Made by a program: the position numbers and the translations under genes. From Desulfuromonadaceae bacterium (GTDB lineage Bacteria; Desulfobacterota; Desulfuromonadia; Geobacterales; Pseudopelobacteraceae), in contig JAQTRC010000003.1 of the NCBI GenBank assembly GCA_028712665.1, positions 12,927 to 76,926 on the forward strand: a DNA stretch of 64,000 nucleotides, given 5' to 3'. The notes beneath the pieces were generated by a model, which did not search any database, had not been told where the DNA came from, and worked only from the letters and a program-made list of their open reading frames with translations. Shown here piece after piece: positions 2,955 through 54,772 of this stretch. How positions within the stretch are numbered: the first letter of the stretch is position 1; the number at the start of each line of letters is the position of its first letter.

Positions 2955-5426
2955 CTACCCTCGCACCCCTGCCGGGATCCCCTTGCCGGGACGCTGTTGT
3001 ATTTTAGGGTTGGAGAGAGTGGTGCGAGACTTTTTCGGCTGTTCCCTGGGAACCTTCGGAGCTGGTGGCGGGAACTTTTCCAGGGCCAGCCTGAGAGCCT
3101 CTCCAACCTCGGAAACCGGCACTATTTTAACCTTCTTCAGAATTTCCGGCGGAATATCCTCCAGGTCCTTCCTGTTCTGTTCGGGAATAATTACCAGCCG
3201 CATCCGGGAACGGACGGCAGCCAGTATCTTTTCCTTTAACCCCCCTATCGGGAGTACCTTGCCGCGCAGCGTCACTTCTCCGGTCATTGCGACATCTTTT
3301 CTTACCGGGATACGGCAGAGGATCGAAACCAGAGCCGTCGTCATGGCAACGCCTGCAGAGGGTCCATCCTTTGGTATTGCACCGGCCGGAACATGAACAT
3401 GAATCTCATTATCCTTGAAGATGTCCGGTTTCAGATTCATGGTATCGGCATGGGCCCTGATAAACGATAGAGCCGCCTGTACCGATTCCTTCATTACATC
3501 GCCCAGTTGACCGGTCAGAGTCAGCCCGGCCTTGCCGCTCATCAGAGTGGCCTCGATATGCAGAATTTCGCCTCCAACCGGGGTCCAGGCCAGGCCGTTT
3601 ACGACTCCGATCTCGTTCTTGTCCAGATCTTCCTCGCGCACGAACTTGGGGGCGCCCAGGTAGTTATGCAAGGTTTTGGCGGTTACCTTTACGAGACGCT
3701 GGTTACCCTCTGCCACCTTGCGTGCTACCTTGCGGCATACTTTGCCTATCTCCCGTTCCAGGTTACGCAACCCGGCCTCGCGGGTGTACTTGCCGATTAT
3801 ATCGCTGATAGATTCATCGTCAAAGCAGATATGTTTGGGTTTGAGACCGTTTTCTTTCGTCTGGCGCGGCACCAGATAACGCTTGGCGATCTCAAGTTTC
3901 TCCTCCTCGGTGTAGCCGGCCAGATTTATGACCTCCATACGGTCGCGCAGGGCGGACGGGATCGGGTCAATCTGATTGGCGGTAGCAACGAACATTACAT
4001 TTGCAAGGCTGAAGGGCTGGTTGATGTAATGGTCGGAGAAAGAGTGATTCTGCTCCGGGTCGAGTACCTCCAGAAGCGCCGAAGAGGGATCCCCCTTGTA
4101 GTCGTAGCCTAGTTTGTCCAGCTCATCCAGCATGAAAACGGGGTTGTTTGCTCCGGCCTGCTTCATCCCCTGCAGTATGCGCCCCGGCAGGGCGCCGATG
4201 TAGGTGCGGCGATGGCCGCGAATCTCCGCCTCGTCACGGACACCCCCAAGAGAAATACGCACAAACTTGCGATTCATGGCGCGAGCGATAGATTTGCCCA
4301 AGGATGTTTTACCAACACCCGGCGGCCCGACAAAGCAGAGAATCGGACCTTTCATCTTCTTTTTAAGCTTTCGCACCGCCAGAAATTCCAGGATGCGTTC
4401 CTTTATTTTGTCCAGATAGAAGTGGTCATCGTCCAGAATTTGTTTGGCGCGGACAATGTCTAGACTGTCACGGGTCGACTTGCTCCAGGGAAGCTCCACC
4501 ATCCAGTCCAGATAGGTGCGTATGATCCCCGCTTCACCGGCATCCGGATGCATGTTTTCGAGGCGGCCCAGCTGTTTAAGCGCCTCTTTCTGTACCGTTT
4601 CCGGCATCTTGGCCGCTTCGATGGCCTTCCTTATTTCGGCCATTTCCTCTTTGCCTTCATTATCTCCCAGTTCACTCTGAATGGCCTTCATCTGCTCGCG
4701 AAGGTAGTATTCCTTATGGTTTTTACCCATCTCCTCGCGGGCCGCGTTCTGAATTTTTACCTGTACGCTTAAAAGTTCCACTTCGCGGTTCAAAAACTCA
4801 TTGACCTTGGTCAGACGCACGATCGGATCGTTGATTTCAAGCAGCAGTTGGGCGTCGGCAACTTTAAGACCCAGATTGCTGGAGATCAGATCGGCCATGC
4901 TGCCAGGGTCCTGGATATTCTCAAGAATAACCATGACTTCGGGAGAAACCTGCTTTCCAAGTTCCACCACCTTGGCCAGCTGCTCGCGCACGGTGCGAAC
5001 CAGCGCCTCGATTTCCAGGGAAATATCCCCCATAGGGGTATCATACTGCCGCTCGGAACGAACCAGATAAAACGGACTGTCGGAGACATACTCCGTGATA
5101 CGGGCTTTGGCCAATCCCTGTACAAGTATCTTTACCCGCCCATCCGGCAATTTGAGCATCCGCATGATCATCGCAACCGTGCCAAATTCATATATCTTTT
5201 CTGGAGGCGGATCCTCATCGCCGATATCGTGCTGGGTTGCGAGCAGTATCATCCGGTCGCCGGCCAGGGCGCTGTCAACCGCCTTGACCGACATCTCGCG
5301 CCCGACGAATAGAGGAATGATCATGAAAGGGTAGACAACCACATCCCTGATCGGTAAAAGTGGCAGCAGCTCTGGAATTTTCAGTTCTTCCGTACTCTGT
5401 TCGGTATCGTTCTCAATCTCGCTCAA
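2955..5426 (-). CDS. lon: ATP-dependent Lon protease
   Basis: 823 aa. Contains a LON N-domain, Walker A GPPGVGKTS and the C-terminal protease motif PKDGPSAG. Confidence 0.97.
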   Translation of the reverse strand: MSEIENDTEQSTEELKIPELLPLLPIRDVVVYPFMIIPLFVGREMSVKAVDSALAGDRMILLATQHDIGDEDPPPEKIYEFGTVAMIMRMLKLPDGRVKILVQGLAKARITEYVSDSPFYLVRSERQYDTPMGDISLEIEALVRTVREQLAKVVELGKQVSPEVMVILENIQDPGSMADLISSNLGLKVADAQLLLEINDPIVRLTKVNEFLNREVELLSVQVKIQNAAREEMGKNHKEYYLREQMKAIQSELGDNEGKEEMAEIRKAIEAAKMPETVQKEALKQLGRLENMHPDAGEAGIIRTYLDWMVELPWSKSTRDSLDIVRAKQILDDDHFYLDKIKERILEFLAVRKLKKKMKGPILCFVGPPGVGKTSLGKSIARAMNRKFVRISLGGVRDEAEIRGHRRTYIGALPGRILQGMKQAGANNPVFMLDELDKLGYDYKGDPSSALLEVLDPEQNHSFSDHYINQPFSLANVMFVATANQIDPIPSALRDRMEVINLAGYTEEEKLEIAKRYLVPRQTKENGLKPKHICFDDESISDIIGKYTREAGLRNLEREIGKVCRKVARKVAEGNQRLVKVTAKTLHNYLGAPKFVREEDLDKNEIGVVNGLAWTPVGGEILHIEATLMSGKAGLTLTGQLGDVMKESVQAALSFIRAHADTMNLKPDIFKDNEIHVHVPAGAIPKDGPSAGVAMTTALVSILCRIPVRKDVAMTGEVTLRGKVLPIGGLKEKILAAVRSRMRLVIIPEQNRKDLEDIPPEILKKVKIVPVSEVGEALRLALEKFPPPAPKVPREQPKKSRTTLSNPKIQQRPGKGIPAGVRG

Positions 5427-5857
5427 TCTGCAATCTCCTTTATAGACACCAGTCTTTCACCGCACTTGGGACATACCACCCGCAACACCCCCAGGCGGTA
5501 TTCCGCCGTGATAGCAGCCGGTTCAACATTTACAGGGATAAGTACCGCATGGTGAAAACTGCCGTAGCTTCGTTCTACACAGATAAACTTGCCGTTGTTC
5601 TGCTCTCTCGGCCTATGAGCTTCCAGCACCAAAGTCAGTCCGCACATTTTGAGTGAAATGCTCTCCAAGACAAACCCGGGGAGGTCGAACTCGATGATGA
5701 TCTCACTGCAGGTTTCATACATGTCCATCTTCGGACGGTTTTCATCCTCTTCAAAGATGTCCCGCAGCTCAAGTGCTTGTAGCAGGTTTCGCATTTCGCC
5801 AATATGACGGCTGAAAATTTCCTGTTGAAACGGCTTTCTGCCACTGAATCTGGGCAT
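5423..5857 (-). CDS. Hsp20/alpha-crystallin family small heat-shock protein
   Basis: 144 aa with an alpha-crystallin-like core (DMYETCSEIIIEFDLPGF ... AEYRLGVLRV). Its stop overlaps the lon start by 4 nt. Confidence 0.7.
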   Translation of the reverse strand: MPRFSGRKPFQQEIFSRHIGEMRNLLQALELRDIFEEDENRPKMDMYETCSEIIIEFDLPGFVLESISLKMCGLTLVLEAHRPREQNNGKFICVERSYGSFHHAVLIPVNVEPAAITAEYRLGVLRVVCPKCGERLVSIKEIAD

Positions 5858-5933
5858 GGGGGCACCTGTAATGTAAAGGTAGTGAAGCCTTTAGTGTAAA
5901 ACCAATTTAGTCTCCATACATAAAACCAATAAG

Positions 5934-5962
5934 AAAGTAAACATTCCATCCGGCAAAGTCAA
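5934..5962 (-). promoter_or_regulatory. candidate sigma70 promoter for hsp20-lon
   Basis: The minus strand reads TTGACT, 17 nt, TACTTT, about 75 nt upstream of the hsp20 ATG. Confidence 0.35.
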
Positions 5963-6094
5963 GGGAGGCAATTTGCTTAATTTCGACATCAATGCGAATC
6001 AATTTAAAATTGACATTGACCATCCTATGCAATAGATAGGATGATTCAGATTCATGCAATTTGGGTTTACCAACCGGGAAACGGGGTACCAGCC

Positions 6095-11704: not shown

Positions 11705-13983
11705 CATCAGCCGATGCATCCCTGCAGACAACAGTTGTTCTCCGCATGACAGAACCGCCCCGCATCATCGAAGTCGCCATTCCACTTTATCTGGACAGGA
11801 CTTTTCACTATCTGGTGCCTGAGAGACTCCTGGCAGAGGCCCTGCCCGGCCGGCGCGCCCTGGTTCCGTTCGGGCGGCGAAAGCTGACCGGCTACATCCT
11901 GGGGAGTCCGGCAGAGTCACAGGTCGAGAAGCCGAAAGAAATTCTGGAAGTGTTGGACAGTGAGCCTCTCTGGACCGGGAATGAGTACGAGTTTTTCCGC
12001 TGGGTGGCGTCTTATTATATGCATCCTCTCGGAGAAGTTCTGAAGACGGCGCTGCCGGCAGGCATAAATGTGCAGAGCCGCAAAGGGAGCTCCGGAGAAA
12101 ATGCTGCGCTGACCGTCGGAAAATCTGCACGCCGCGAAAAATTCTATCTCCCTGGGCACGGCTTGGAGCCTGCCAGATCGCCCGGTTCGAAGGCGCTGGA
12201 AATACTGATGGTCATCCGCGAATCCGGCGACCTGCCGGCGGAGATACTGAGAAAGAGGTTCGGCAACCCTGCTCCACAGCTGAAGAGACTCTGCGAACTC
12301 GGATTGGTTTCGGTTGAAGAGCGGGAAGTATACCGCGATCCTTTCAAAAACCATACAGTGACTCGTGATGAACCTCGAATTCTGCATACACATCAAAAAA
12401 GAGCCCTTGAGGCCATTTCCTCCTCTCTTGACCTGAATAAGTTTATGCCATTTCTACTGTATGGAGTTACCGGCAGCGGCAAGACTGAAGTATATCTGCA
12501 AGCCATCTCTAACGCCCTTAACCATGGGAAAAGCGCCCTGGTGCTTGTGCCGGAGATTGCGTTGACACCGCAGCTGACCGGGCGTTTCCAGGCCCGCTTT
12601 GGAGGGGGTATCGCAATTTTGCACAGCGGTCTCTCCGATGGCGAGCGTTATGATGAATGGCGGCGCATCAGGCGCGGTCTGGCTCGGATTGTCATCGGCG
12701 CCCGTTCGGCCGTTTTCGCCCCCTTGGAAAAGATCGGCATCATCATTGTAGATGAAGAGCATGAAGCCTCCTTCAAACAATCGGACGGCTTACGCTACAA
12801 TGCCCGGGATCTCGCACTGCTGCGCGGCAGAATGGAGCGGGCTGCCGTAGTGCTCGGTTCGGCTACACCACTGGTCACCAGCATCCATGCTGCCGCCGAA
12901 GGGAGGCTGACGCTGCTGGAACTGCCGGAGCGGGTCGAGAAACGCCCGATGCCTTCGGTTGATCTGATTGATATGAAGGGGAGCAAGGAGACCATCTCGG
13001 CGCCGCTCGGATTATTACTGGCTCAAACGGTCGAAAGCGGCCAGCAGGCCATTGTATTTCTGAACCGGCGGGGATTCGCCACATTTCTGCTCTGTAACGA
13101 CTGCGGGAAGCTGCTGGCCTGTCCCAACTGCTCGGTCACACTCACCTATCATCGCCAGCGAGGCCAGAGCGTCTGTCATTACTGCGATTATTCCGTTCCT
13201 GCGCCAGGCACCTGTCCATCCTGTGCTGCTGCCGAACTCAAAGAGCTGGGCGCAGGTACTGAAAAACTGGAACAGAATCTGAGAGAACAGCTCCCCAATG
13301 CGCGGATACTCCGGATGGATAGCGACACTACCTCCGGCAAGGGAAGCCACGAGCGCCTCCTTTCAAAGATGAACGACGGCACGGCCGATATTCTGGTCGG
13401 CACTCAGATGATCGCCAAAGGGCATGATTTTCCCGGTGTGACCCTTGTCGGGGTTATCAACGCAGAGACGAGCCTGGGGATGCCTGACTTCAGGGCGGCA
13501 GAACGGACCTATCAGCTTCTCTCGCAGGTCATCGGTCGGGCCGGGCGCGGCGAGAAACCGGGCCGGGTGCTTCTCCAGGCTTATGACACGGAACATTACG
13601 CTATCCGCTCGGCCGCCTCGCATGACGCAGCCCGGTTTTACACCCAGGAGCTGGAATTTCGCCGTGAGGCCGGCTACCCACCGTTCACGTTTCTTGCTCT
13701 CCTCGGCATTTCAGGCCTTTCCGAACAGACGGTTTCCGAGCATGCAGAAGAGACAGCCAGACTTCTGGCTCGTATCAAACTGGATCTAAAGGTTCGTATC
13801 GAACTGCTCGGTCCGGCGCCCTCTCCAATCTATCGCCTTCGGGGGCGATACCGCCGCCAGATTCTTCTAAAAGCGGCGACACGCGCCGACCTGCATCGCC
13901 TGATTCTGACCTGGCGACAAAAATCATGCGCCGTTTCGACGATCCGGGTGACAGTTGATATCGATCCGGTTGATTTAATGTAA
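11701..13983 (+). CDS. priA: primosomal protein N' (replication restart helicase)
   Basis: 760 aa. Contains Walker A GVTGSGKTE, DEEH, Cys-rich zinc motifs (CNDCG..CPNCS..CHYC..CPSC) and a C-terminal domain. The start is uncertain (GTG at 11701 or ATG at 11746). Confidence 0.93.
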   Translation: MTSADASLQTTVVLRMTEPPRIIEVAIPLYLDRTFHYLVPERLLAEALPGRRALVPFGRRKLTGYILGSPAESQVEKPKEILEVLDSEPLWTGNEYEFFRWVASYYMHPLGEVLKTALPAGINVQSRKGSSGENAALTVGKSARREKFYLPGHGLEPARSPGSKALEILMVIRESGDLPAEILRKRFGNPAPQLKRLCELGLVSVEEREVYRDPFKNHTVTRDEPRILHTHQKRALEAISSSLDLNKFMPFLLYGVTGSGKTEVYLQAISNALNHGKSALVLVPEIALTPQLTGRFQARFGGGIAILHSGLSDGERYDEWRRIRRGLARIVIGARSAVFAPLEKIGIIIVDEEHEASFKQSDGLRYNARDLALLRGRMERAAVVLGSATPLVTSIHAAAEGRLTLLELPERVEKRPMPSVDLIDMKGSKETISAPLGLLLAQTVESGQQAIVFLNRRGFATFLLCNDCGKLLACPNCSVTLTYHRQRGQSVCHYCDYSVPAPGTCPSCAAAELKELGAGTEKLEQNLREQLPNARILRMDSDTTSGKGSHERLLSKMNDGTADILVGTQMIAKGHDFPGVTLVGVINAETSLGMPDFRAAERTYQLLSQVIGRAGRGEKPGRVLLQAYDTEHYAIRSAASHDAARFYTQELEFRREAGYPPFTFLALLGISGLSEQTVSEHAEETARLLARIKLDLKVRIELLGPAPSPIYRLRGRYRRQILLKAATRADLHRLILTWRQKSCAVSTIRVTVDIDPVDLM

Positions 13984-39978: not shown

Positions 39979-41046
39979 TCACCCCTGCGATACCCCGGCC
40001 TGCTCGAAGGTCGCCATCTCTTTCAACAGCTTCACTCCGGCATCGATCAGGGTCATGGCCAAAGCGGCGCCTGTTCCTTCGCCAAGGCGGAGTTTGAGAT
40101 CAAGGATCGGTTCAACACCGATCCGCTCCAGCATGAAGCTATGGCCGATTTCTACCGACTGGTGGGCGGCGAATATGTAATCACGCACATTGGGATGCAG
40201 CTCCGAAGCGATCAGGGCTCCGGCCGTGGAGATGAAGCCATCGATCACCACCGGAATCGAGTTGGCGGCACAACCAAGCACCAATCCTGCAATAGCGGCT
40301 ATTTCGAACCCGCCAACCTTGGAAAGAACGTCAAGAGGATCTTTAGGGTCCGGGTTATTGACGGCAAGTCCAAGTTCGATTACCCGTACCTTATTGAGCA
40401 GGGCTGCATCGCCTATACCGGTGCCGCGGTGTGTGACCTCCGACACTTTTTTGCCGGATATGGCCGCTATAATGGCAGATGACGGCGTGGTGTTGCCGAT
40501 CCCCATCTCGCCGGTGCCGACCAGCCCCACCCCTTCAGCATGGCACTTGTCAGCCAGCTCGATTCCGACAAAGAGTGCGGCCTGCATCTCTTCGCGGGTC
40601 ATGGCCGGCCCCTTTGCAAAATTTCGGGTACCTCGTGCAACTTTTTTGCGTATCAGTCCGGCTGTATCGGCAAAGTCATAATCGACCCCGACATCAACCA
40701 CCCGCACCTCGGCCCCTGCATGACGCGCGAGGACGTTGATCCCCGCGCCTCCCGCCAGGAAATTAAAAACCATCTGCGCTGTTACTTCCTTGGGAAATAG
40801 CGAGACCCCCTCTTCTACGACCCCATGGTCAGCGGCAAAGGTAAAAATAACTCTCTTCGAGATATCCGGCTGCCGGCTGCCTCTGATACCGACAATACGG
40901 CAGGCAAACTCTTCCAGCCTCCCAAGCGAGCCAAGCGGCTTGGTCTTGTTGTCCAGAAGAAGCTGGGCCTGCTGTAGAAGATCGGGGCTGACCGGTTTAA
41001 TGCGTTCGAGCGTGTTTTTTATTTTATCCATATAATTCCCTTTCAT
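39979..41046 (-). CDS. cobT: nicotinate-nucleotide--dimethylbenzimidazole phosphoribosyltransferase
   Basis: 355 aa with motifs GEMGIGNTT and EGTGA. ATGA overlap with the cobU stop. Confidence 0.93.
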
Positions 41047-41576
41047 TTCAGTTTTAACGGAATCCCGCTGATAACGACATGGACCTCCGTCGCCGACGCT
41101 GCCAGTATTTGATTGGTCTTGCCGGCAATATCCCGGAACAGTCGCGCAAGGTTATTTTCCGGCACGATACCCATTCCCAACTCGTTTGACACCATTATTA
41201 CCGGCGTAACCATCCCGTGCAGAGTCGTTTTCAGACGCTGCACATCTTCGAAAATGCTGGCCTCGATATCTTCGCCGGATTGTTCATACTTGAGCAGCAG
41301 ATTGGAAAGCCAGAGTGTGATGCAGTCCACCAGTACAGCCCGATACTGACCATCACAGCGTGCCAGGGCCTGAGCGAGGTGAATCGGCTCCTCGATCGTC
41401 CTCCACTCCGCTCCGCGCCGTTCTATATGTCTGCTTACGCGCTCATCCATCTCTATATCCAGAGCCTGCGCCGTTGCCAGATAAGCGAGCTGCGCGCCGA
41501 AATTACGCGTCACTTTTTCGGCAAAGGCGCTCTTGCCGCTGCGTGCTCCACCGGTTATGAAGATAGTGTGTGACAT
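41043..41576 (-). CDS. cobU: adenosylcobinamide kinase / adenosylcobinamide-phosphate guanylyltransferase
   Basis: 177 aa with P-loop [10 protein letters not shown]. Confidence 0.92.
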
Positions 41577-41773: not shown

Positions 41774-41839
41774 CTCGAAGCAACGGGGAATATACAACCC
41801 GACCTCGGCCCCTCTTTCCACGGAGGTTCCAGAAAGCGT

Positions 41840-42000
41840 CGGAATGGCAGGTTTCCTGGCTTCAGGGTCATCTTACTAGCCGCGCCTTCCCAAAATTACT
41901 TTCAGTGGCCGCTGCGGTTTTCATCGCCTGTTACAGTTGCGGGACAGCGAGGGGGTCGCACCCTCTTCCCTATTATCCGTGCCTTGAGCGGCACGGCACC
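41840..42000 (-). ncRNA. cobalamin (B12) riboswitch
   Basis: The minus strand contains AAUAGGGAAGAGGGUGCGA...CCCGCAACUGUAA, then GCCACUG...GGGAAGGCG, then the B12 box AGCCAGGAAACCUGCC. Confidence 0.9.
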
Positions 42001-42033
42001 AAAACCGTGTGTGATGTAACAATTGTAAGGAGG

Positions 42034-44701: not shown

Positions 44702-46645
44702 TCACTCCGCCTGCTGCATGACCCTCGATAATTCCGCCTCAAGCAGATTCATGCTGTACGGTTTCCGGATTAATCCGGAAGGGGCTTGACCGGTGGTGGT
44801 GCGCCCACCCAGTTCCTCTTCATTGAAGCCGCTGGCAAGGATTACCTTTGTGTCCGGCCTGATATTGTAAATTTCGTTCATCGCAGCTATTCCATCCATG
44901 TTCGGCATGGTCAGATCCATCAGAACGACAGCAATATCGTCCGAATGTTCACGGAATTTAGCGACCGCATCGACGCCGTCATGGGCGGTAATAACCCTGA
45001 AGCCGCAGAGCTTGACCATCTTGGTACAGACTTTAAGGACGGACTTTTCATCATCCACCACCAGGGCCAGACCGGAATGCGTGGTCAAAGGCATGGTGTC
45101 TATAACCGATGCAGACGTAACCTGTTCTTGATCCGTGGCAGGGAGTGAGGATTCCGAAACCGGGAACAGCGCCCTGAAGGTTGTCCCCTTGCCAGGTTTG
45201 CTCTCCACAAACAGGGCTCCGCGGTGTGTCCTCATTATCCCCATGACCGCCGACATTCCAAGTCCACGTCCGGTAAACTTCGTTGTAAAGAAGGGGTCGA
45301 AGATCAGTTTTATCGTTTCCTTGCTCATGCCGCAGCCGTTATCGCTGACCTCCAGGTACGCAAAGCGCCCCGGCAACGGTTTCTCCTCCAGCAGACTGGA
45401 GGCCAGAAAAGTTTGGTCGCAATCCTGGATGCCGGTGGTGAGCTTTATAATGCCCGGCTGCTCTTCAATCGATTCGGCGGCGTTGGTGATCAGATTCATC
45501 ACCACCTGCTGAATTTGGGCTTCACATGCCAAAATGGTCGGCAGTTCCGGAGAGAGGGACAGTTTCATCGAAGCGCCTGCCAGGACTACCGTATTAAGCA
45601 TTTCAGTATTATCCATGACCAGATGATTCAGGTTCACTTCCTCTTTGGTAATAAATCCGACGCCCACATAGGTCAGCATCAAGCTGGTAAGATGAGCTGC
45701 ATGCCTGCCCGAGTTCAAAGCATTTGCGAGATACTTTTGGGACTTCGAACTTGGAGCAAGCCCCATCGAGGCCAGCTCAATATTGCCGAGAATAGACTGC
45801 AAAAGGTTGTTGAAATCGTGGGCAATACCTCCCGCCATAACTCCCAGACTCTCCAGTTTCTGTGTTTGCAACATCTGACGTTCAAGATTCAAACGCTCTT
45901 CCTGGAGGCGGGAATTCTCCTCGCTTCGTTGTTGCAATTCGGTAGCCAGGTTATTGACGGCAACAGCCGCCCGACCCGGTTCATCATTGGTTACAATGTT
46001 GATCCGGGAGGTAAAGTCACCGTTATGCACGGCCTCTATTCCCTTCATAAGGGCATTAAAAGAGCCGGTGACCTGACGTAATACAATATGGCAGAACAGG
46101 GATACCGTCAGCCAGAAGAGAAAGGAAATGCTGACGGAGAATATAATCACATTGCGGACAGCAGCTGACAGGTCGGCCGTTCCACGCACAATTCGCACGG
46201 TTCCGATCTTGGTTCTGGAAGCTTCATGGCCACCGGTAAAGGATGAATCGACCGAATAGGTCAGGGGGTTACTGAACACTTCCACCGTTTGGCTTATCAA
46301 CCCGATTGATTTGGAATCGTCCGGCGAACCGACGAAGGCCAGGAGTTTGCCATCCGGATCGTTGATTACTACCGCGCTGATTTCCGGAGCCTGAGCCGCC
46401 CTCTCTGCCAACTGCCTCAGCAGATCGCGATTTCCGGCATACAGCGGAAGCCTGGCGGACTCGCCCAATTGCTCCGTACGCAGCTTGAGCTGTTCGTTAG
46501 CTGCGAGTCGTTTTTCTTGAATTACAGAGACAATGTACAGAAAGCACAACGTGCAGGCGATCAGAAAGGTCAGCAGGGAAAATATCGAGAAGAGTTTGAA
46601 TTGAAAACTGGATCGAAAGCTTGACGATCGTTCTGGTGGTGACAT
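44702..46645 (-). CDS. hybrid sensor histidine kinase (TM, periplasmic domain, TM, HAMP, HisKA, HATPase_c, REC)
   Basis: 647 aa. Two TM helices flank a ~140-aa periplasmic segment. H-box GGIAHDFNNLL, G-box GRGLGMS and a C-terminal receiver (LVVDDE...LMDLTMPNMDG). Confidence 0.9.
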   Translation of the reverse strand: MSPPERSSSFRSSFQFKLFSIFSLLTFLIACTLCFLYIVSVIQEKRLAANEQLKLRTEQLGESARLPLYAGNRDLLRQLAERAAQAPEISAVVINDPDGKLLAFVGSPDDSKSIGLISQTVEVFSNPLTYSVDSSFTGGHEASRTKIGTVRIVRGTADLSAAVRNVIIFSVSISFLFWLTVSLFCHIVLRQVTGSFNALMKGIEAVHNGDFTSRINIVTNDEPGRAAVAVNNLATELQQRSEENSRLQEERLNLERQMLQTQKLESLGVMAGGIAHDFNNLLQSILGNIELASMGLAPSSKSQKYLANALNSGRHAAHLTSLMLTYVGVGFITKEEVNLNHLVMDNTEMLNTVVLAGASMKLSLSPELPTILACEAQIQQVVMNLITNAAESIEEQPGIIKLTTGIQDCDQTFLASSLLEEKPLPGRFAYLEVSDNGCGMSKETIKLIFDPFFTTKFTGRGLGMSAVMGIMRTHRGALFVESKPGKGTTFRALFPVSESSLPATDQEQVTSASVIDTMPLTTHSGLALVVDDEKSVLKVCTKMVKLCGFRVITAHDGVDAVAKFREHSDDIAVVLMDLTMPNMDGIAAMNEIYNIRPDTKVILASGFNEEELGGRTTTGQAPSGLIRKPYSMNLLEAELSRVMQQAE

Positions 46646-46749: not shown

Positions 46750-47616
46750 CTAAAAACCATCCCCTTCGACTGATTGTCCCAGACGCTTCAACACAACGGG
46801 ATTGCTCCTGGGTATAATATTTTTCGGAAAAGCAAGCGGTATGCTGCCAATAGGGTCGCCGTTCAGAATCGCCGAGACCATGGCGCTGGCCTGACGCCCC
46901 AGGCTGATTCGGTCTATTTCAAGGACGACCGCCGCACCCAGCCCCAGATAATTGCCGGCAAAAGAGACGACCGGTATGGCCTGATCCTGTCCGAAACGGA
47001 AATATGCCTCGGTTGTTTCCCTGGTCACCGCTGTGCTGTCCGGCAGCATCCAGAGAGCATCCACCTTGCGGTCCAGCGTCGAAAGCCGTTCTATTGTCTC
47101 ACGGGGTTCGGATATTTCGCGGGTCACCAGTTCGATTCCGGTCGCTTCGGCGGCCTTGCGGGCCAGATGAAGGTACCAGCCGCTCCTGGCCGGATTGTAG
47201 ATTACGCCTACGCGTCTGGTTTTCATGGCCTGGAACATTCTGATACTGCGTTCCGGATGAACGAACATACCGATGCCGGTCAGGTTGGGGTGTAAAGCCT
47301 TCCGGCCATGGATGCCGAGCGACATTACGGTTACCACCGGAGTCTGCGGAACCTTGCGGGCCACTGTCAGGGCGGCGTCCCCCACGGCGAGTATCAGCGT
47401 CGGACGATCCTCGCGCACAATCCGGACAATATCCACCTCGGCATAGTCGGAGAGCACGATCACCCGACGTGAGACGGCACTATCGGCGCGGAAGCCCTTC
47501 AGCACCTCATCGTAGGCCTGATCGCGGCGACTCTGGAGCACCAGGACGTCATAGGCCTGGGCCAGAGAGGGGAGCAGGGTCGCCAGGGCGAGTATCAGAG
47601 AGACAAGGTATCTCAT
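46750..47616 (-). CDS. orphan periplasmic binding protein, ABC_sub_bind (PF04392/COG2984)-like, copy 1
   Basis: 288 aa with a signal peptide. Motifs NLTGIG, RRVGVIYNP, VDALWMLPD and IPVVSF match the ABC_sub_bind pattern. There is no permease or ATPase nearby. 1-nt overlap (TGATG) with the receptor gene. Confidence 0.75.
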   Translation of the reverse strand: MRYLVSLILALATLLPSLAQAYDVLVLQSRRDQAYDEVLKGFRADSAVSRRVIVLSDYAEVDIVRIVREDRPTLILAVGDAALTVARKVPQTPVVTVMSLGIHGRKALHPNLTGIGMFVHPERSIRMFQAMKTRRVGVIYNPARSGWYLHLARKAAEATGIELVTREISEPRETIERLSTLDRKVDALWMLPDSTAVTRETTEAYFRFGQDQAIPVVSFAGNYLGLGAAVVLEIDRISLGRQASAMVSAILNGDPIGSIPLAFPKNIIPRSNPVVLKRLGQSVEGDGF

Positions 47617-49451
47617 CAGAAGCTCACCCTCATTCCGCCTTCGAACCAGCGGCCGGGATTCGGAACCATATCATACTGGTACTGACCGTTGCTGAAGAGG
47701 TTCCGGCCGGAGAAGAACAGTTCCAGCGAACTGTTCTCGCGCTTGAAGAGGATCGCCCCCAGGTGCAGATCCCACAGCAGACCGCCGTAACGAGGGTTGT
47801 CTCCCGGCATGGAGTTCCAGTTGATATGGCTGCCGGTCAAGAGGGCGCGATAGGTTTTGTCGTCATACCGCAGGGAGAGTTTGACGGTGTGACGCGGGGC
47901 ATAATTGACCTGCGCGCCGTCGCTGCTGCGGGTGGTGTCTACGAAGGTGTATCCGGCCCCTAGTGAGGTATTCCAGAGCGGGGTGGTGCGGAGTTCGGCC
48001 TCAGCCCCCAAGGCTTCGTGCCGTTCCACATCCTTCCCCCATGTCTCATTGCGGAAGACGGTTCCCTTCAGCCAGAGATAGGGTACTGAGGTGCTCTCCA
48101 TGCCGATCTGGGTGGTCCAGATCTTCTCCGATGGCTTGTCCACGTCAAGAAACTGAGGCACGCCATAGCCACGGGCGGCATAGGCCCGCAGCATGGTAGT
48201 CTCGCTGGCCTGCCAGGTGCCCCCCAAAGAGTAGCTGTACTGGTCCCCTGCGGTCTGGGTGTGGTCGAAGCGGACTCCGGGGGTGACGCTGAAGCTCCCC
48301 AGCGTGACGGTGTCGTTCAGGTAGGCGCCCCAACGATCGGCAGCCCTGCTGAAAGGACTGTAGGTTGAACCGTCCATGGTGTTGCTGTTATTCTCCAGAT
48401 GGCTGTAGTCGCCACCCGTCACCAGCAGGTCATTATCCCCGCGCCGGACCAGTTTGATACTGGCGCCGCTGACCTGGTTGCTGAAACTGCCGGTGGGGAG
48501 ATCGGGCTGCCAAGTGAGGCCATCGCTGATGTTGAACCAGGAAGTATCGCCTTTCAGAAATGAGTGGCGAGCGCTGAATTCCAATTCCAGCCGCTCGCTG
48601 AGCGGCTGGCGCAGGCCGATGTTGGCGAAGAGCAGGCTTTTGTCCTGATTCTCCTTCAGATCATAGGCCGGGATGAAGAGATCCCCCTGCCTGATCTGGC
48701 TGCGGTTGAAGGTGGCGTAGAGCCGGCCGCTGCCGGGGAGATCCCAGGTCAGTCGGGCATGGGCGTTGGTGGAGGCGTTCTGGGTATTGGGGAGGATGCC
48801 GTTGCTCCCCAGGAAACCGCCCGATAGGTAGTACCCCAGTCTTCCGCTGCTGCCGGAGAGTTCCAGGGAACTGTCGGCGGTGGTCCGCTCGCCGATGGAG
48901 GCGCTGGCAGTGCCGGAGAGGGTGCGGTCTTGCACCGGAGCCTTGGTGATAACGTTGATCACCCCGGCCAGGGCCGAGCCCCAGGCCGCAGAAGCAGCTC
49001 CTTTGACGATCTCGACCCGCTCGATGATCCGGGCCGGAATCAGGGTGGTTTCGGAGTAATTGTCCCCAAGATTGGTTATTGAGAGCCCGTCCACAAAGAC
49101 CTGGACGTGTTGGAAGCTGGAACTTTGGATAAAAGTGTAGGCGGTGATGCCGGGACCGCCGTTGTGCAAAACCTGGATGCCGGGGATTGTATCGAGAATG
49201 TCGGCCAGGGTATGGGCGTTCATGGCCGCGATGTCGGCGAAGGTTATAACGGTGACGTTCTCGGCGGTCTGGGAGAGCGGCTTGGGGGCGCGGCTGGCTG
49301 TGGAGGCGCTCTCCTGCCAGGCGCTGAACAGTTCGAGGGTATCCTCGTCGTCCGGCTCGGCGGCTAAAACCGTACAGGGCAGGAGCACGATCATCAACCA
49401 GATGACAGAAAACAATCCCCGCAGGGTATGTAAAGGTGAGAAATTTGACAT
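47616..49451 (-). CDS. TonB-dependent outer-membrane receptor, copy 1
   Basis: 611 aa with a signal peptide, a plug domain (ENVTVIT...IERVEIVKGAASAAWGS), a beta-barrel and a terminal Phe. Confidence 0.9.
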   Translation of the reverse strand: MSNFSPLHTLRGLFSVIWLMIVLLPCTVLAAEPDDEDTLELFSAWQESASTASRAPKPLSQTAENVTVITFADIAAMNAHTLADILDTIPGIQVLHNGGPGITAYTFIQSSSFQHVQVFVDGLSITNLGDNYSETTLIPARIIERVEIVKGAASAAWGSALAGVINVITKAPVQDRTLSGTASASIGERTTADSSLELSGSSGRLGYYLSGGFLGSNGILPNTQNASTNAHARLTWDLPGSGRLYATFNRSQIRQGDLFIPAYDLKENQDKSLLFANIGLRQPLSERLELEFSARHSFLKGDTSWFNISDGLTWQPDLPTGSFSNQVSGASIKLVRRGDNDLLVTGGDYSHLENNSNTMDGSTYSPFSRAADRWGAYLNDTVTLGSFSVTPGVRFDHTQTAGDQYSYSLGGTWQASETTMLRAYAARGYGVPQFLDVDKPSEKIWTTQIGMESTSVPYLWLKGTVFRNETWGKDVERHEALGAEAELRTTPLWNTSLGAGYTFVDTTRSSDGAQVNYAPRHTVKLSLRYDDKTYRALLTGSHINWNSMPGDNPRYGGLLWDLHLGAILFKRENSSLELFFSGRNLFSNGQYQYDMVPNPGRWFEGGMRVSF

Positions 49452-49539
49452 GGCGTTAGCGTTAGCGTTGTAGTATACATATTTCAGTCCGGTTGTCCAC
49501 CGGTTATGTTATGTAAATCCACACGCAAGGGGGGTGAAC

Positions 49540-49644
49540 ATGATGCAGGAAACACACGAGGAACTGTTGGTGCTGGAAGAGGGCCACGAGGTTGGTGTTG
49601 TAAATTCGTGCTGCTCGGCAGCGCAAAATGCAAAGCTCAAGTAG
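49540..49644 (+). CDS. candidate RiPP precursor peptide (34 aa, not in ORF track)
   Basis: Ribosome-binding site AAGGGGGG ends 5 nt before the ATG. Translation: MMQETHEELLVLEEGHEVGVVNSCCSAAQNAKLK, i.e. an acidic leader-like half and a Cys-Cys core-like half. It is divergent from receptor copy 1 and on the same strand as the rSAM/SPASM gene. Confidence 0.5.
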   Translation: MMQETHEELLVLEEGHEVGVVNSCCSAAQNAKLK

Positions 49645-49653: not shown

Positions 49654-49676
49654 CCGGGAGGGCGTGTCCCTCCCGG
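49654..49676 (+). terminator. GC-rich hairpin 10 nt after the peptide stop (possible terminator or stabiliser, no U-tract)
   Basis: CCGGGAGGG, CGTGT, CCCTCCCGG. Confidence 0.4.
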
Positions 49677-49787: not shown

Positions 49788-50093
49788 TTATGCGGCTTTC
49801 ATCGGGTGTTCCTTCAAGTATGTCCGCAGCGCCTCATTCATGCGAGTCTGCCAGCCTTTGCCGGTAGACTTGAAAGTCGTGAGAATATCCCGGTCAAGCC
49901 GAACTGTCTGCAGCTCTTTAACGCCGCTGCCCAGCTTGCGGCCTGATTTGGGCGCCAGCATCCCGTCCGCAACTTCTTTGCCTAAAATCTCATGCAGCAC
50001 TTCCCGTGCAGGCCGGGCATTTTTGAAATCCTCGGCAGTCCATTCCGGGTTTTCGTCATCAATCAAGCATGGATTCGGTTTGGTTGTTGCCAT
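49788..50093 (-). CDS. brnA: BrnA-family antitoxin
   Basis: 101 aa. The C-terminus VRLDRDILTTFKSTGKGWQTRMNEALRTYL matches the BrnA RHH-like pattern. Confidence 0.8.
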   Translation of the reverse strand: MATTKPNPCLIDDENPEWTAEDFKNARPAREVLHEILGKEVADGMLAPKSGRKLGSGVKELQTVRLDRDILTTFKSTGKGWQTRMNEALRTYLKEHPMKAA

Positions 50094-50346
50094 GTTCTTT
50101 TACCTCTCTATTGTTAGCTTTTCTAAGACTTATGACGTGAATCCCGCCGTTTCTGGGAGTTATCACCGCAACATGCAGACGCTCACCAATATAACCAAAA
50201 ACCCTGAAGCGTCTTTCGCCATAATCCTTTCGGGTGTCTTCTCTGACTACGGAATTATCCCAGTCGATACTTGCAAACAGCTCGAAAGAAAGGCCGCGCT
50301 CTTCAATGTTTCTGCTGTTTTTGACTTCATTATAAGTAATCTTCAC
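50059..50346 (-). CDS. brnT: BrnT-family (DUF497) ribonuclease toxin
   Basis: 95 aa. The pattern N..ERGLSFE...DYGERRF...HVISLRKAN is typical of BrnT. Overlaps brnA by 35 nt. Confidence 0.8.
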   Translation of the reverse strand: MKITYNEVKNSRNIEERGLSFELFASIDWDNSVVREDTRKDYGERRFRVFGYIGERLHVAVITPRNGGIHVISLRKANNREVKEHGNNQTESMLD

Positions 50347-50375: not shown

Positions 50376-51740
50376 ATGTCAATGGAGAAAACCCGGGCTG
50401 CAACCCGTTGCAACCCATCATTACCACCGATCGAAAGGGCATCGTCCATGGAACTTACCCACTACCACAAAATCTACCCCATACCTGACAAACCGGGGCG
50501 GCTGCTGCTGGTCGCCACCCGTCGCTGCTCTCTTCTTGAGCTTTCCGAGGCGCTGTGGGACAAGCTCTGCAACGGCGGCGAGCTGACCCAAAAGGAACTG
50601 GAGACTTTTATCCGCCTGGGGGTGCTGGTGGAAAGCCGCGCCGACGAACGGGAAGAGATGCGGGGCACCTTTGACACCATAAACAGCTCAAGCCGACGCT
50701 TTGAGGTGACGGCGGCCCTGACCCTGGAGTGCAATCTGGCCTGCCCCTACTGTTTCGAAGATCCCTTCCGGGGGCGTTTCGTGATGAGCGCGGAGACCGC
50801 CGGCCTTCTGGTGCAGCTCCTCTGCGAGCGGATGTCCGCCGGTCTGGATGTATTGGTGGATTTCTACGGCGGCGAGGCTTTGATGCGGCTCGATCTGCTG
50901 CGGGGGATCGCCGCGCGCTTGAAGGATGCAGCCAGCCTCCACGGAGTAACCTTTGCCTTCAACCTCTTCTCCAACGGTGTCCTGCTGACCCGCAACGTGG
51001 TGGAGGAACTGCTGCCGCTGGGGCTGGCGGCGGTGCGGACAACCCTGGACGGCCCCCCCGACATCCACGACGCCCAGCGTCCGTTCGTCTCCGGCAAGGG
51101 GAGTTTTGACGTTATCCTGAAAAACCTGGTCTCGGTGCATGATATAGTGGCGCTGGATCTTGGGGGGAACTACACCTGCGAGAATTACCGCCGCTTCCCC
51201 GAGCTGCTGGATATCATGTTGGAGGCGGGAATCGACCCAGCACGGCTGAAAGGGGTCGATTTTTCGCCGGTCATGCCGAAGGCGGACGGCAGCGTGTCCG
51301 GCGATTTCGGTTCCGCCTGCGCATGTACGGGAGAGGCATGGGTAATTGAGGCCAACCTGTTTCTGCGGGATGAAATCATCCGGCGTGGCTTCCCGACTTC
51401 AAAGCTTCAGGCGAGCGCCTGCATGATCGAGTTCGCCAACGATATCGTGGTGGGATATGATGGTTCGTTCTATAAATGCCCGGTGTTCATGGGAGACCAG
51501 GAGATGCGGGTAGGGAGTCTGGCCGAGGGGATAGGCGACTACCGCCAATCCCACAACATGGACGTCTGGAAGAGCGACGAATGCCTGGAGTGCGCCTATC
51601 TGCCGCTCTGCTTCGGCGGCTGCCGATTCTTTCGCAAGTTGAAGAGCGGAGCGATCGATGGTGTTGACTGTCGCCGAACGATGCTGGACGCCTCGCTGGA
51701 GCGGATCGTCCGGCAGGATCTGTCGTTGAAGCGGCAGTAG
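50376..51740 (+). CDS. radical SAM/SPASM-domain peptide maturase
   Basis: CNLACPYC (CX3CX2C). SPASM motifs CX13GX4C (CMIEFANDIVVGYDGSFYKC) and CX2CX5CX3C (CLECAYLPLCFGGC). About 70 aa of RRE/PqqD-like N-terminal domain. The likely true start is the ATG at 50448 (MELTHYHKIYP). Confidence 0.88.
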   Translation: MSMEKTRAATRCNPSLPPIERASSMELTHYHKIYPIPDKPGRLLLVATRRCSLLELSEALWDKLCNGGELTQKELETFIRLGVLVESRADEREEMRGTFDTINSSSRRFEVTAALTLECNLACPYCFEDPFRGRFVMSAETAGLLVQLLCERMSAGLDVLVDFYGGEALMRLDLLRGIAARLKDAASLHGVTFAFNLFSNGVLLTRNVVEELLPLGLAAVRTTLDGPPDIHDAQRPFVSGKGSFDVILKNLVSVHDIVALDLGGNYTCENYRRFPELLDIMLEAGIDPARLKGVDFSPVMPKADGSVSGDFGSACACTGEAWVIEANLFLRDEIIRRGFPTSKLQASACMIEFANDIVVGYDGSFYKCPVFMGDQEMRVGSLAEGIGDYRQSHNMDVWKSDECLECAYLPLCFGGCRFFRKLKSGAIDGVDCRRTMLDASLERIVRQDLSLKRQ

Positions 51741-51877: not shown

Positions 51878-52735
51878 CTACTCGACTGATTGCCGGAGGC
51901 GCTTCAATACAACGGGATTACCTTTGGGCATTATGTTTTTTGGAAAAGCAAGCGGTCTGCTGCCGATAGGATCGTCCTCAAAAATTGCCGAGATCAGGGC
52001 GTTGGCCTGACGCCCCAGGCCGATTCGGTCTATTTCTAGCACGGCAGCTGCGCCAAGTTCCAGATAAGTTGCTGCAAAGGATACCACCGGCACACCCAGA
52101 TCCTGACCGAATCGGAAATAGGCCTCGGTTGTTTCCCGGGTAATGGCGGTAGTGTCAGGGATCATCCAGAGCGCATCCACTTTGTCCGCCAGGGAAGAGA
52201 TTTGGGCCAGCGTCTCGGATGATCTTGAGACCTCGCGGGTCACCAGTGTTATTCCGGCCGCCTGTGCCGCATTTTGAGCAAGCCGCAGGTACCAGCCGCT
52301 TTTGGCTGGATCGTAGATAAGGCCAACCCGCCTGGCTTTCATGCTCTTGAAAATGCTGATGTAGCGTTCCGGCGAAACGAACATACCGATGCCGGTCAGA
52401 TTGGAACGTGAAGACTTTTTGTCATGAATTCCGAGCGCCATAAGAGCGACCACCGGGATATGCTGTACCTTGCAGGCCTCTTTCAAGGCGGCGTCCCCCA
52501 AGGCCAGGATTAGCCTGGGGCGATCCTCGCGCACAATCCTGGATACGTCCAGATAGGAGTAATCGGAGAGCACCATCAGGCGGTAGCTGGCACTGTTCCC
52601 GGCACGGAAGCCTTTCAGCGCCTCCTCGTAACCGGTGTCGCGCCGACTCTGCAGCACCAGCACGTCGTAAGCCTGGGCAATGGTGGGGAGCAGGGTCGCC
52701 ATGGCGAGTATGATATAGATTAAGAGGGCTCGCAT
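51878..52735 (-). CDS. orphan periplasmic binding protein, ABC_sub_bind-like, copy 2
   Basis: The ATG at 52735 gives MRALLIYIILAMATLLPTIAQA, a signal peptide, with the same 1-nt TGATG overlap as copy 1. Collinear with copy 1 along the whole length, roughly two-thirds identical by eye. Confidence 0.75.
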   Translation of the reverse strand: MRALLIYIILAMATLLPTIAQAYDVLVLQSRRDTGYEEALKGFRAGNSASYRLMVLSDYSYLDVSRIVREDRPRLILALGDAALKEACKVQHIPVVALMALGIHDKKSSRSNLTGIGMFVSPERYISIFKSMKARRVGLIYDPAKSGWYLRLAQNAAQAAGITLVTREVSRSSETLAQISSLADKVDALWMIPDTTAITRETTEAYFRFGQDLGVPVVSFAATYLELGAAAVLEIDRIGLGRQANALISAIFEDDPIGSRPLAFPKNIMPKGNPVVLKRLRQSVE

Positions 52736-54606
52736 CAGAACTTCACCCTTAATCCGCCTTCGAACCATCGGGGAGCATTTACGCGGTAATCATCTGTGTA
52801 TTGAGCGTTATTGAAGAGATTGCGCCCGGAGAAAAACAGTTCCGACTCCACGCCTGCGCAATTTGGGAGCTTTTGCGAGATGTGAAGATCCCACTCCATC
52901 TGCCTGTCGTGGACGCTGTTCCCGGCATCGGACGGCCAGTTGACATGCGAACCGGTAATGTTTGCCTGAAACCCTCTCCTGACATTGTCATAGTGGAGGG
53001 CAATCCTTGTGGAACTGATCGGGATATACGGAATGCGGAGATCGGTTTTTTTGTCCCGAACGTCACTGTAAGTGTAGCCTGCTCTAAGGGAGAAGTCATA
53101 AAAGGGGACTGTGCGCCCTTCGATTTCAAATCCCCGTCTTACCTCCTTGGTTTCGGCGCTGCCAATCGCTGACATAGGGTAGTCCGACGGGACAACGAAG
53201 CTCTGAATGTTCCAGGTGTAACTGTAAAAGAGAGTCCCTTTCAGCCAGAGCAACGGGATGTCACTGGTTTCAATCCCGGACTGCAAGGTAAAGATATTCT
53301 GCAGGCTGTCCTTAAAGTTAGTCATGGGGAGGCTGTATCCCCTCGCAGCATAGGCACGGAGCAGAGTCTTCTCCGTAAACTGCCAGGTTGCCCCAAGATG
53401 GTAACTGGTTGCAACTTGTTCATTATCTCCGATATGGTCTAACCGTACCCCCGTCAGCAAGGTCAGATCGCCGATGGAATAGCTTCCATTAACATATGTC
53501 CCGTAGCGATTCATGTCCCGGTTGAAATTCATGTAGGAAAATCCGAGTAGCGGTTCACTGACGGAGACTTTGTCATGCAGATACTCAAACCCGGCAGCCA
53601 GATTGGTTCTGCGGTCTCCCCAGGTGAGTTTGGCGGCAACCTGTTCCGAATCGGTCCGATTCTTTGCATCAACTATCGTGATGGCTTCAGACATGATGTA
53701 CTTTCGCCAGATATCTTTCCTCATTACAGAAGAAAAGAGTTCCAGGTTGAGCCGGTCATTTATCGGGTATTCGAATCTAAGATACGCGGACGCATAGCGT
53801 GAACCGGTCGGAACAAGAGTATCAGGCATTATAGACGCATTATCGTAACCATAGTTGAACTCCCTGTCGCGGTAGTCGGCGGCAAATGTCAGCCTCCCCT
53901 TGTTAGGCAAGTCATAGGTTAACTTGCCAATGCCGTGATTAAGGGTAACCATGTTCCCCGGACGCAACCCGTTGGAGTTGAAACGACCGCCATCTATATA
54001 ATAACCCAGCCTCCCCTTTTTACCGCTTACTCCGCCACGCAGATCCGAAGTTCCGAGATCCCCGTAAGAGGCCGAAGCGATCCCTTTCAGATTTGCGTTC
54101 TCCGGATCACGCGTGATAACATTTACCGCACCTCCAAGCGCCGGGCCCCAGGCGACAGACGCAGCACCCTTGACAATCTCGATCCGTTCTATCCGCTGGA
54201 CCGGGATCATCCCGAGATCGGGGCTGTCATCCACCCCGAAGAGGTTCTGTGGAACACCATCGATCAGAAGCAGAACCTGATTGTTCATCGCGCCGTTAAT
54301 TGTAAATGCTACCGCACTACCCGGCGTCCTCATCTGGAAAAGCTGGATACCGGAGACCGTCTGCAGCACCTCATCCAGGGTATGGGCATTTATGCGGGCT
54401 ATGTCGTCCGCTGTGATTACCGTGACGTTTTCGGCGATTAAAGACGCGGGGCGGGGGATTTTGTAAGAAGGAATGTTTGTATCTTTACCATCACCGTCAA
54501 GGCCAAGGGCGCTTTCCACGGCATTATCTTCTCCCCGGGCCGGAAAAGCAGTCAATGCCGGGCAGAGCAGCAGAAACAACAGCAGCAGCCTTGTGGGAAA
54601 TCTCAT
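52735..54606 (-). CDS. TonB-dependent outer-membrane receptor, copy 2
   Basis: About 623 aa from the ATG at 54606 (the ORF track uses TTG at 54612). Signal peptide, plug (ENVTVIT...IERIEIVKGAASVAWG), barrel and terminal Phe. Confidence 0.9.
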   Translation of the reverse strand: MRFPTRLLLLFLLLCPALTAFPARGEDNAVESALGLDGDGKDTNIPSYKIPRPASLIAENVTVITADDIARINAHTLDEVLQTVSGIQLFQMRTPGSAVAFTINGAMNNQVLLLIDGVPQNLFGVDDSPDLGMIPVQRIERIEIVKGAASVAWGPALGGAVNVITRDPENANLKGIASASYGDLGTSDLRGGVSGKKGRLGYYIDGGRFNSNGLRPGNMVTLNHGIGKLTYDLPNKGRLTFAADYRDREFNYGYDNASIMPDTLVPTGSRYASAYLRFEYPINDRLNLELFSSVMRKDIWRKYIMSEAITIVDAKNRTDSEQVAAKLTWGDRRTNLAAGFEYLHDKVSVSEPLLGFSYMNFNRDMNRYGTYVNGSYSIGDLTLLTGVRLDHIGDNEQVATSYHLGATWQFTEKTLLRAYAARGYSLPMTNFKDSLQNIFTLQSGIETSDIPLLWLKGTLFYSYTWNIQSFVVPSDYPMSAIGSAETKEVRRGFEIEGRTVPFYDFSLRAGYTYSDVRDKKTDLRIPYIPISSTRIALHYDNVRRGFQANITGSHVNWPSDAGNSVHDRQMEWDLHISQKLPNCAGVESELFFSGRNLFNNAQYTDDYRVNAPRWFEGGLRVKF

Positions 54607-54772
54607 CTGCAAGGAAAAACCTCTAAGTTTTGATTACTTGATTGATATGACCTAACACAACTGGTGGCAAGTTGTCCAGTGCATATGATATTATTCAAAA
54701 AATTGGTGCTACTGCTGCGTAAAGAATATAATGGCGATACTAATCTTTCTGCAAGCATGATATATAATCCTG

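Follow-up and report, generated by a model that had tools for sequence, protein, structure and literature searches.

The 64,000 nt stretch of contig JAQTRC010000003.1 analysed here (assembly GCA_028712665.1 of a Desulfuromonadaceae bacterium, positions 12,927 to 76,926; hereafter the window) carries an unannotated open reading frame (ORF) at 49540..49644 of the plus strand, and comparison with related genomes demonstrated that this ORF is a real, conserved gene. Judged by homology and gene order, it represents the missing substrate gene of the already named geopeptide system and belongs to an overlooked subclade of it. Its product is very probably a genuine geopeptide-family precursor of a peptide of the ribosomally synthesized, post-translationally modified kind (RiPP), which the adjacent radical S-adenosylmethionine (SAM)/SPASM maturase modifies at its cysteine pair. 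Precursor and maturase together form the biosynthetic side of a conserved module, with a divergent TonB-dependent receptor operon as its other side. The gene consists of 34 codons plus TAG (ATG ATG CAG ... AAG TAG) and encodes MMQETHEELLVLEEGHEVGVVNSCCSAAQNAKLK, exactly the translation given in a first-pass annotation, which had read the ORF as an acidic-leader/Cys-Cys-core peptide. The Shine-Dalgarno sequence AAGGGGGG at 49527..49534 (+) lies 5 nt (TGAAC) before the first ATG, where that annotation had put it, and 8 nt before the second. The start codon is ambiguous between 49540 and 49543, and the single Met of the closest ortholog aligns with the second ATG.

The conservation of the ORF was assessed at 44 orthologous loci, all from Geobacterales/Desulfuromonadales and one genome per species, which were fetched with the 430-aa maturase and whose maturases are 47-79% identical. 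Small ORFs were sought in them by tblastn with the window peptide, after which a profile was run over the ORFs of all six frames. A homologous ATG-to-stop ORF was found on the same strand just 5′ of the maturase in about 41 of the 44 loci, in most of which it ends 18-270 nt before the maturase start; the exceptions were contigs that break off here and loci carrying an insertion (L009, L012, L044; loci and contigs are cited by L numbers). All 23 genes examined in detail have the ATG start and the stop at the aligned position, and a AAGGAGGTGA- or AAGGGGGTGA-like Shine-Dalgarno sequence at the equivalent place. Pairwise differences at the first, second and third codon positions were 0.40/0.35/0.63, third positions being the most variable, and pN was 0.38 versus a saturated pS of 0.72. 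Supportively, a profile of the orthologs built without the window peptide recovered the window ORF as the only significant match among 2127 ORF segments of the window (E=4e-13), and still did so with E=7e-12 after removal of its three closest relatives. On an independent Logan contig (L080), the identical peptide had been called as a gene in an identical arrangement. Homologous small ORFs beside orthologous maturases, codon periodicity and a translation signal had been named in the first-pass annotation as the checks on its prediction, and each of them is borne out in these loci, the translation signal in the form of the Shine-Dalgarno sequence.

A chance intergenic ORF would be the trivial explanation, as G+C-rich DNA like this yields many ORFs of similar length by chance (148 with 25 aa or more overlap the 12 kb around it) and the peptide has no genuine Pfam or NCBIfam match. 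The significance of the ORF lies in its conservation and not in its size, and the conserved sequence, synteny, codon periodicity, ATG and stop positions and Shine-Dalgarno sequence effectively refute this explanation, leaving it a negligible probability.

The stop codon is followed from +10 by a hairpin with a perfect 9-bp G+C stem at 49654..49676 (+), composed of CCGGGAGGG (49654-49662), the loop CGTGT and CCCTCCCGG (49668-49676). Its position and stem had been correctly described in the first pass. With only 2 T in the next 10 nt there is no T-run, so that the hairpin is not a canonical intrinsic terminator, and its free energy is unremarkable against shuffled sequence in this G+C-rich stretch (z = -0.74). 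In 17 of the 23 orthologous loci, the 55 nt after the stop contain a perfect stem of 7 bp or more, as against 2.6% of random 55-nt windows, and the hairpins of many orthologs carry a T-rich tail. The hairpin is likely a transcript-end, attenuator or stabiliser element. A short ORF with a conserved hairpin, often with a T-run, ahead of an enzyme gene is also how an attenuation leader would look, that is, a regulatory upstream ORF that controls maturase transcription and whose product is functionless. However, the leader motif VLEEG and the Cys pair are conserved while third positions are saturated, and the enzyme has a peptide-recognition domain resembling a RiPP recognition element (RRE) and belongs to peptide-maturase families. 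Moreover, in the window 0.7 kb of antisense genes follow the hairpin, which makes classic attenuation impossible there, yet the ORF is intact. A regulatory leader is therefore highly improbable.

The first pass had divided the single peptide into acidic leader and Cys-Cys core, and this division proved to hold across the family. Each of the 42 peptides collected (27-44 aa) carries the motif (V/I)(L/I)x(E/D)G in its acidic leader and, 6-9 and mostly 8-9 residues past the motif Gly, a Cys pair. Also common to the 42 are a hydrophobic residue at the third position ahead of the first Cys, and a tail 6-10 residues long that is made up of small residues and contains one or more Lys or Arg. In the window peptide, the leader M1-S23 (49608 being the last nucleotide of 49540..49608, +) includes VLEEG at V11-G15 (49570-49584); 8 residues separate it from C24-C25 (49609-49614), with which the core CCSAAQNAKLK (49609..49641, +) begins, followed by a 9-residue basic tail that contains 2 Lys and ends in AKLK. 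Family alignment showed L12, G15 and C24 to be invariant, and V11, E14 and C25 to be at least 90% conserved. The pair is CC in 37 of the 42 peptides and CxC in five, and two of the CC group have CCC. The CCC cores (…FRFCCCMNMTRA) are encoded at 5877..5972 (+) of L034 and 5867..5962 (+) of L038, and the CxC cores, CTC or CKC, are those of L010, L015, L020, L021 and L040, so at least two Cys are always present and their adjacency is not strict.

Assignment to the geopeptide family rests on homology to the members of NCBIfam TIGR04229 ("geopeptide"), a 22-position model with a cutoff of 30 bits, which the peptides of L064 (38.7 bits), L026 and L036 (32.7 bits each) pass. When a profile was built from the TIGR04229-like (type C) peptides only, the window ORF ranked first of the 2127 segments with E=0.004. 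The window peptide belongs to a subclade with the leader LxVLEEGxExGVVxxCC and a tail ending in AK[ILV][KR], and the peptide is unannotated because this entire subclade escapes the TIGR04229 model. The peptides of L064 and L036 are in the NCBI protein set and that of the window exists in the collection searched only as a Logan entry; peptides of the RefSeq-prefixed records of Geobacter sp. AOG1 (L005) and Oryzomonas (L013) were absent from the protein collection searched. When the peptide was padded to 40 aa and run as a word-indexed search against 5.8 billion proteins, only the identical Logan peptide came back. The sole phmmer match of the 34-aa peptide among 1.84 billion representatives, P0002, was judged spurious, being a 961-aa translated tandem repeat that matches peptide residues 17-28 fourteen times, and the only match in the Pfam and NCBIfam scans of the peptide, an ornithine carbamoyltransferase fragment, was spurious as well.

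Other ways of reading the peptide were rejected. An NxxC (NxxcB-type) reading of N22-S-C-C25 fails because N22 is not conserved, orthologs having Q, G, A, S, M or C at this position. A double-glycine leader, as cleaved by C39-peptidase ABC (ATP-binding cassette) exporters, was likewise dismissed, as the motif ends in E-G and not in GG, GA or GS, and no ABC transporter or peptidase is conserved near the module. The core contains no Asp or Glu, and neither the N-x-x-C nor the C-x3-D rule fits it.

The maturase gene at 50448..51740 (+) encodes a 430-aa protein matched by NCBIfam TIGR04280, "geopeptide radical SAM maturase", with 637 bits at a cutoff of 400, query residues 25-451 being aligned to model positions 1-427 of 428. 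A 100%-identical, 430-aa NCBI protein from a Desulfuromonadaceae metagenome-assembled genome carries this same name, and the start at 50448 is agreed on by that protein, the start of the TIGR04280 model and the independent Logan contig gene call. Cysteines C95/C99/C102 (CX3CX2C), C325, C344, C379, C382, C388, C392 and C408, the last seven forming the seven-Cys SPASM region, are invariant in 40 sequences, as is C291, and a TIGR04085 SPASM domain was detected with E=1e-13. The next-best NCBIfam relatives are maturases of Cys peptides, namely CefB, TIGR04463, Clo7bot, PapB, SCIFF and QhpD. An AlphaFold2 model (pLDDT 83, pTM 0.83) begins with an N-terminal sheet of three strands with helices (pLDDT ~90) and continues with the radical SAM barrel and then the SPASM region. 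The top PDB match was CteB, a SCIFF maturase that forms thioethers, by sequence (E=3e-20) and by fold over the full length (TM 0.68 over 459 columns), and the fold match included the N-terminal beta3-helix domain. The maturase is a CteB-like radical SAM/SPASM enzyme whose N-terminal domain resembles an RRE.

Taken together, these features suggest how the precursor may be processed. After translation from its strong Shine-Dalgarno site, the acidic leader, centred on VLEEG, would be bound by the RRE-like domain of the maturase, and the 8-9-residue spacer after the motif would bring the Cys pair to the active site. There, Cys24 and Cys25 would be modified, most likely by one or two intramolecular thioether cross-links of the CteB, PapB or QhpD type. 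One Cys may ligate the open auxiliary-cluster site of the maturase, as described for CteB. The GC hairpin past the stop would mark the usual high-expression end of the precursor transcript, and the mature peptide would be exported and its leader removed. The first-pass annotation had inferred a substrate of a thioether-forming radical SAM/SPASM enzyme from peptide composition; the enzyme class is borne out by the CteB-like maturase, and the thioether itself follows only from the relatedness of the enzyme, which gives this chemistry about an even chance.

The genes facing the precursor belong to the same conserved unit. The TonB-dependent receptor TBDR1 (Pfam Plug and beta-barrel) is encoded divergently at 47616..49451 (-), its start codon at 49451 lying 88 bp from that of the precursor, the spacing noted in the first pass. 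It is followed by the periplasmic PF04392 binding protein SBP1 at 46750..47616 (-), which has a signal peptide, and by a hybrid sensor histidine kinase/response regulator at 44702..46645 (-) with HAMP, HisKA, HATPase and REC domains in Pfam. Two transmembrane segments around a ~120-aa loop precede the HAMP domain at the kinase N-terminus. A divergent receptor and then a PF04392 binding protein were found in every locus with enough upstream DNA, and the sensor kinase came after the binding protein in about two thirds of the loci; by eye, the N-terminal sensor and HAMP part is alike in the kinases of L004 and L013 and the transmitter parts differ. No ABC permease or ATPase occurs in the ORF list of the neighbourhood, so the binding protein looks like a sensor partner and not like a transport component. 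A second, orphan pair lies beyond the maturase and convergent with it, TBDR2 at 52735..54612 (-) and the PF04392 protein SBP2 at 51878..52768 (-), without a peptide gene or kinase of its own; an equivalent extra pair is found in L034 and L038 (at 7.3-10.1 kb in those loci). Uptake and sensing of the mature peptide is the most likely role suggested for the receptor, the binding protein and, usually, the kinase, and that receptor and peptide are related as receptor and ligand seems to us nearly an even matter, slightly on the doubtful side.

The same gene arrangement, with another chemistry, would suit a methanobactin-like metallophore, in which the Cys of the peptide is oxidised to a sulfur heterocycle or a metal-binding group and the product is recaptured through the receptor and binding protein. 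The Cys pair is indeed the sole invariant core feature, receptor and binding protein lie side by side throughout, peptide and receptor co-vary (see below), and the orphan pair of the window resembles a xenosiderophore-type receptor. Furthermore, SbtM of Geobacter, a SPASM radical SAM enzyme, converts Cys or selenocysteine (Sec) into a thio(seleno)oxazole (PMC9204691), which makes SbtM-like thiooxazole formation the main chemical alternative to a thioether. However, the nearest families and structures of the maturase form thioethers, and the SbtM family is outside its top 25 NCBIfam matches. In addition, no ABC permease or ATPase that could carry a metal complex into the cytoplasm lies in the neighbourhood, the sensor kinase points to sensing and not to nutrition, and no metal-regulator box was recognised by eye in the intergenic region. 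A metallophore of this type is therefore unlikely.

Next, the co-variation of the module components was evaluated by distance-matrix (Mantel) comparisons on 33 complete loci. Leader distances correlated with maturase distances (r=0.76; 0.45 given the receptor). Core distances correlated with receptor distances (r=0.48; 0.28 given the maturase, p=0.0005), and core versus maturase given the receptor was not significant (0.07). Receptor and maturase correlated with r=0.78, and the binding protein with either of them with r=0.43-0.46. The receptor tree has two deep clades. Clade 1 occurs with tails ending in [KR][ILV] (AKLK, AKIR, AKV and the like) in 14 of 15 loci and clade 2, into which TBDR2 falls, in only 1 of 23, its tails ending in AR[SNA], TKS or TRS (Fisher p=2e-8, uncorrected for ancestry). 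The switch is also seen inside one maturase subclade, where L008 (CCSGNSAKV, tail SAKV) has a clade-1 receptor, and L004-6 (CCSGNTARSA) and L007/L017 (tails TKS and TRS) have clade-2 receptors. These results showed that the leader tracks the maturase and that the C-terminal tail tracks the receptor clade. As a further observation, L022-L024, L026, L035, L041 and L042 have a kinase and binding protein 57-70% identical to those of the window, as close as its nearest relatives L001 and L002, together with a receptor (~39%) and maturase (49-55%) of the other type. Such split identities suggest recombination that swaps a receptor-peptide-maturase cassette on a conserved binding-protein/kinase backbone.

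This co-variation bears on whether the modified peptide might instead stay inside the cell as a cofactor or regulator, like pyrroloquinoline quinone (PQQ) or mycofactocin, with the adjacent receptor reflecting co-regulation or a shared island. The lack of an exporter or protease conserved in the module, the absence of a signal sequence from the precursor peptide and a biosynthetic unit of just two genes would all agree with an intracellular product. PQQ and mycofactocin, however, need several more dedicated enzymes, none of which is in the module, and the adjacency has been kept over 47-79% maturase divergence while everything downstream changes. The receptor clade also switches with the peptide tail even inside one maturase subclade, and such joint switching is hard to explain without physical recognition. 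An intracellular role is thus quite improbable.

The most far-reaching reading is that geopeptides are diffusible, type-specific ligands, serving as a signal or as a shared metallophore or cofactor, which we hold as a tentative proposal, somewhat more doubtful than the receptor-ligand relation itself. In this proposal, the co-evolving receptor would read the C-terminal tail and pass the mature peptide across the outer membrane to the PF04392 binding protein, which lacks an ABC partner, and the hybrid histidine kinase would then sense it. More speculatively, uptake would be type-specific, and an orphan receptor would allow the cell to detect the other peptide type.

Several observations weigh against the assignment of the gene as a geopeptide precursor with a secreted, receptor-read product. 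On the side of the peptide and its processing, the window peptide gives no TIGR04229 match even at E<=10, and the core has no conserved thioether acceptor, positions after CC varying freely. In the window, the maturase is split from the precursor by two antisense genes, and a consensus scan found no plus-strand sigma-70-like promoter 5′ of the peptide. Nothing such as a protease or exporter is conserved 3′ of the maturase, where the largest gene cluster comprises four loci and is housekeeping, so that a dedicated protease or exporter is missing; the conserved genes of the module include neither a leader peptidase nor an exporter, and secretion is therefore hypothetical. On the side of the co-variation, the Mantel and Fisher statistics ignore shared ancestry, the pairing of tail and receptor may rest on two or three independent events only, L037 and L016 are exceptions to it, and the binding-protein tree mixes both receptor types.

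Compared with known systems, the window pair is closest to the geopeptides. Its maturase is full-length, above cutoff and NCBI-named, its peptide is homologous to TIGR04229 members, and the (V/I)(L/I)xEG...CC architecture, with the peptide encoded 5′ of a TIGR04280 maturase and in the same direction, is shared. It differs in that its peptide subclade goes undetected by TIGR04229 and is of a type absent from the NCBI protein set, and in that BrnT/BrnA genes (described below) split the pair. No paper was found on the chemistry or function of geopeptides, TIGR04280 or TIGR04229, nor under other terms; the "gageopeptides", retrieved as a substring match, are unrelated. The ranthipeptides/sactipeptides (CteA-CteB SCIFF/thermocellin, PapA-PapB, QhpC-QhpD) likewise combine an RRE, radical SAM and SPASM maturase with a Cys-containing core behind an acidic leader. 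Unlike them, the window family has no Asp, Glu or Thr acceptor conserved at a fixed spacing, the window peptide has only two Cys, which are adjacent, its cross-link is a prediction, the host is Gram-negative, and the module is tied to a TonB-dependent receptor, binding protein and kinase and not to a protease/ABC exporter.

Methanobactin operons comprise MbnA with MbnB/C, the TonB-dependent receptor MbnT and the periplasmic binding protein MbnE. The window module resembles them only in that a short RiPP precursor containing Cys is accompanied by a dedicated pair of TonB-dependent receptor and periplasmic binding protein. In contrast, its maturase is a radical SAM/SPASM enzyme, no MbnB/MbnC (DUF692/MNIO) ORF and no MATE exporter is in the module, and a sensor kinase replaces the sigma/anti-sigma pair. 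The selenobiotic maturase SbtM shares the host lineage and is a SPASM radical SAM enzyme acting on the Cys/Sec of a short co-localised peptide, but it belongs to a different NCBIfam family and its substrate motif is GG(U/C)G, not CC. LuxP-LuxQ, TorT-TorS and ChvE-VirA are binding-protein-dependent sensor kinases, and the window pair is like them in that its periplasmic binding protein has no ABC permease partner and is encoded beside a membrane kinase with a periplasmic loop. It is unlike them in being preceded by an outer-membrane TonB-dependent receptor and in having as its proposed ligand the ribosomal product of a neighbouring gene.

The gap between the precursor stop and the maturase start at 50448 is 803 nt, on the same strand, in line with the 0.8 kb given in the first pass, which had overlooked two genes within it. 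These encode the antitoxin BrnA at 49788..50093 (-) (Pfam PF14384, E=1e-22) and its partner, the ribonuclease toxin BrnT, at 50059..50346 (-) (Pfam PF04365, E=1e-19), a type II toxin-antitoxin pair oriented antisense. This arrangement is unique among the 44 loci and recurs in Logan contig L080, and the pair is an insertion between precursor and maturase in the window genome. In L039, the gap holds a 212-aa ORF (5339..5977, +) with a class-I SAM-methyltransferase-like glycine motif (VLVDVGCGKGRV), a possible tailoring enzyme by its sequence.

The divergent intergenic region was examined for control elements. The promoter and terminator scan returned the inverted repeat CCGGTTGTCCACCGG at 49489..49503, which holds the conserved TTGTCCA. 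In most loci (L001-L040 region compared), the receptor start codon is ~40-50 nt away from this heptamer, which in several is part of a TGTCCA-N6-8-(T)GGACA palindrome, whose second arm is shortened in L013. On the minus strand, a -35-like TGGACA with TATACT 16 nt downstream forms the predicted receptor promoter, and the TTGTCCA element could be a promoter or an operator. By eye, the aligned intergenic regions gave no convincing match to a sigma-54 -24/-12 element or a Fur-like box. A direct repeat, GCGTTA GCGTTA GCGTT, occupies 49452..49475 of the plus strand immediately 5′ of the receptor start codon, and TBDR1 has no obvious Shine-Dalgarno sequence. An Rfam scan found nothing at the precursor locus; its sole match, 7.5 kb away, was a cobalamin riboswitch at 41829..42018 (-) (RF00174, 114 bits) before cobU/cobT (41043..41576 and 39979..41046), which is unrelated to the precursor, and neither receptor carries one.

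For annotation, the finding means that the maturase is labelled in this genome and its substrate gene is missing. Such an ORF is what a specialist would expect beside a gene called "geopeptide radical SAM maturase". The same gap affects the AK[ILV][KR]-tailed and the ARSA/TKS-tailed subclades at large, which are unannotated because the TIGR04229 model is too narrow, and a broader profile from the 42 sequences would recover the missed precursors. The family itself is already named by TIGR04229/TIGR04280, of which the first-pass annotation was unaware; what is new is its universal coupling to a receptor, binding protein and kinase, and the co-variation of tail and receptor. Geopeptides are a RiPP class of Geobacter, Pelobacter and Desulfuromonas relatives important in metal and electrode respiration, with Geobacter sp. 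AOG1, AOG2 and SVR and Pelobacter propionicus among the cultivated carriers, and the receptor-operon coupling, the split co-variation and the orphan receptors turn them into a specific, testable hypothesis. If the ligand proposal is true, receptor, peptide and maturase would together be a specificity cassette open to exchange, with at least two types; a cell with an orphan pair such as TBDR2/SBP2 could detect the other type or pirate it; and geopeptides would give Gram-negative metal reducers a means of communication or uptake that is based on RiPPs and gated by receptors.

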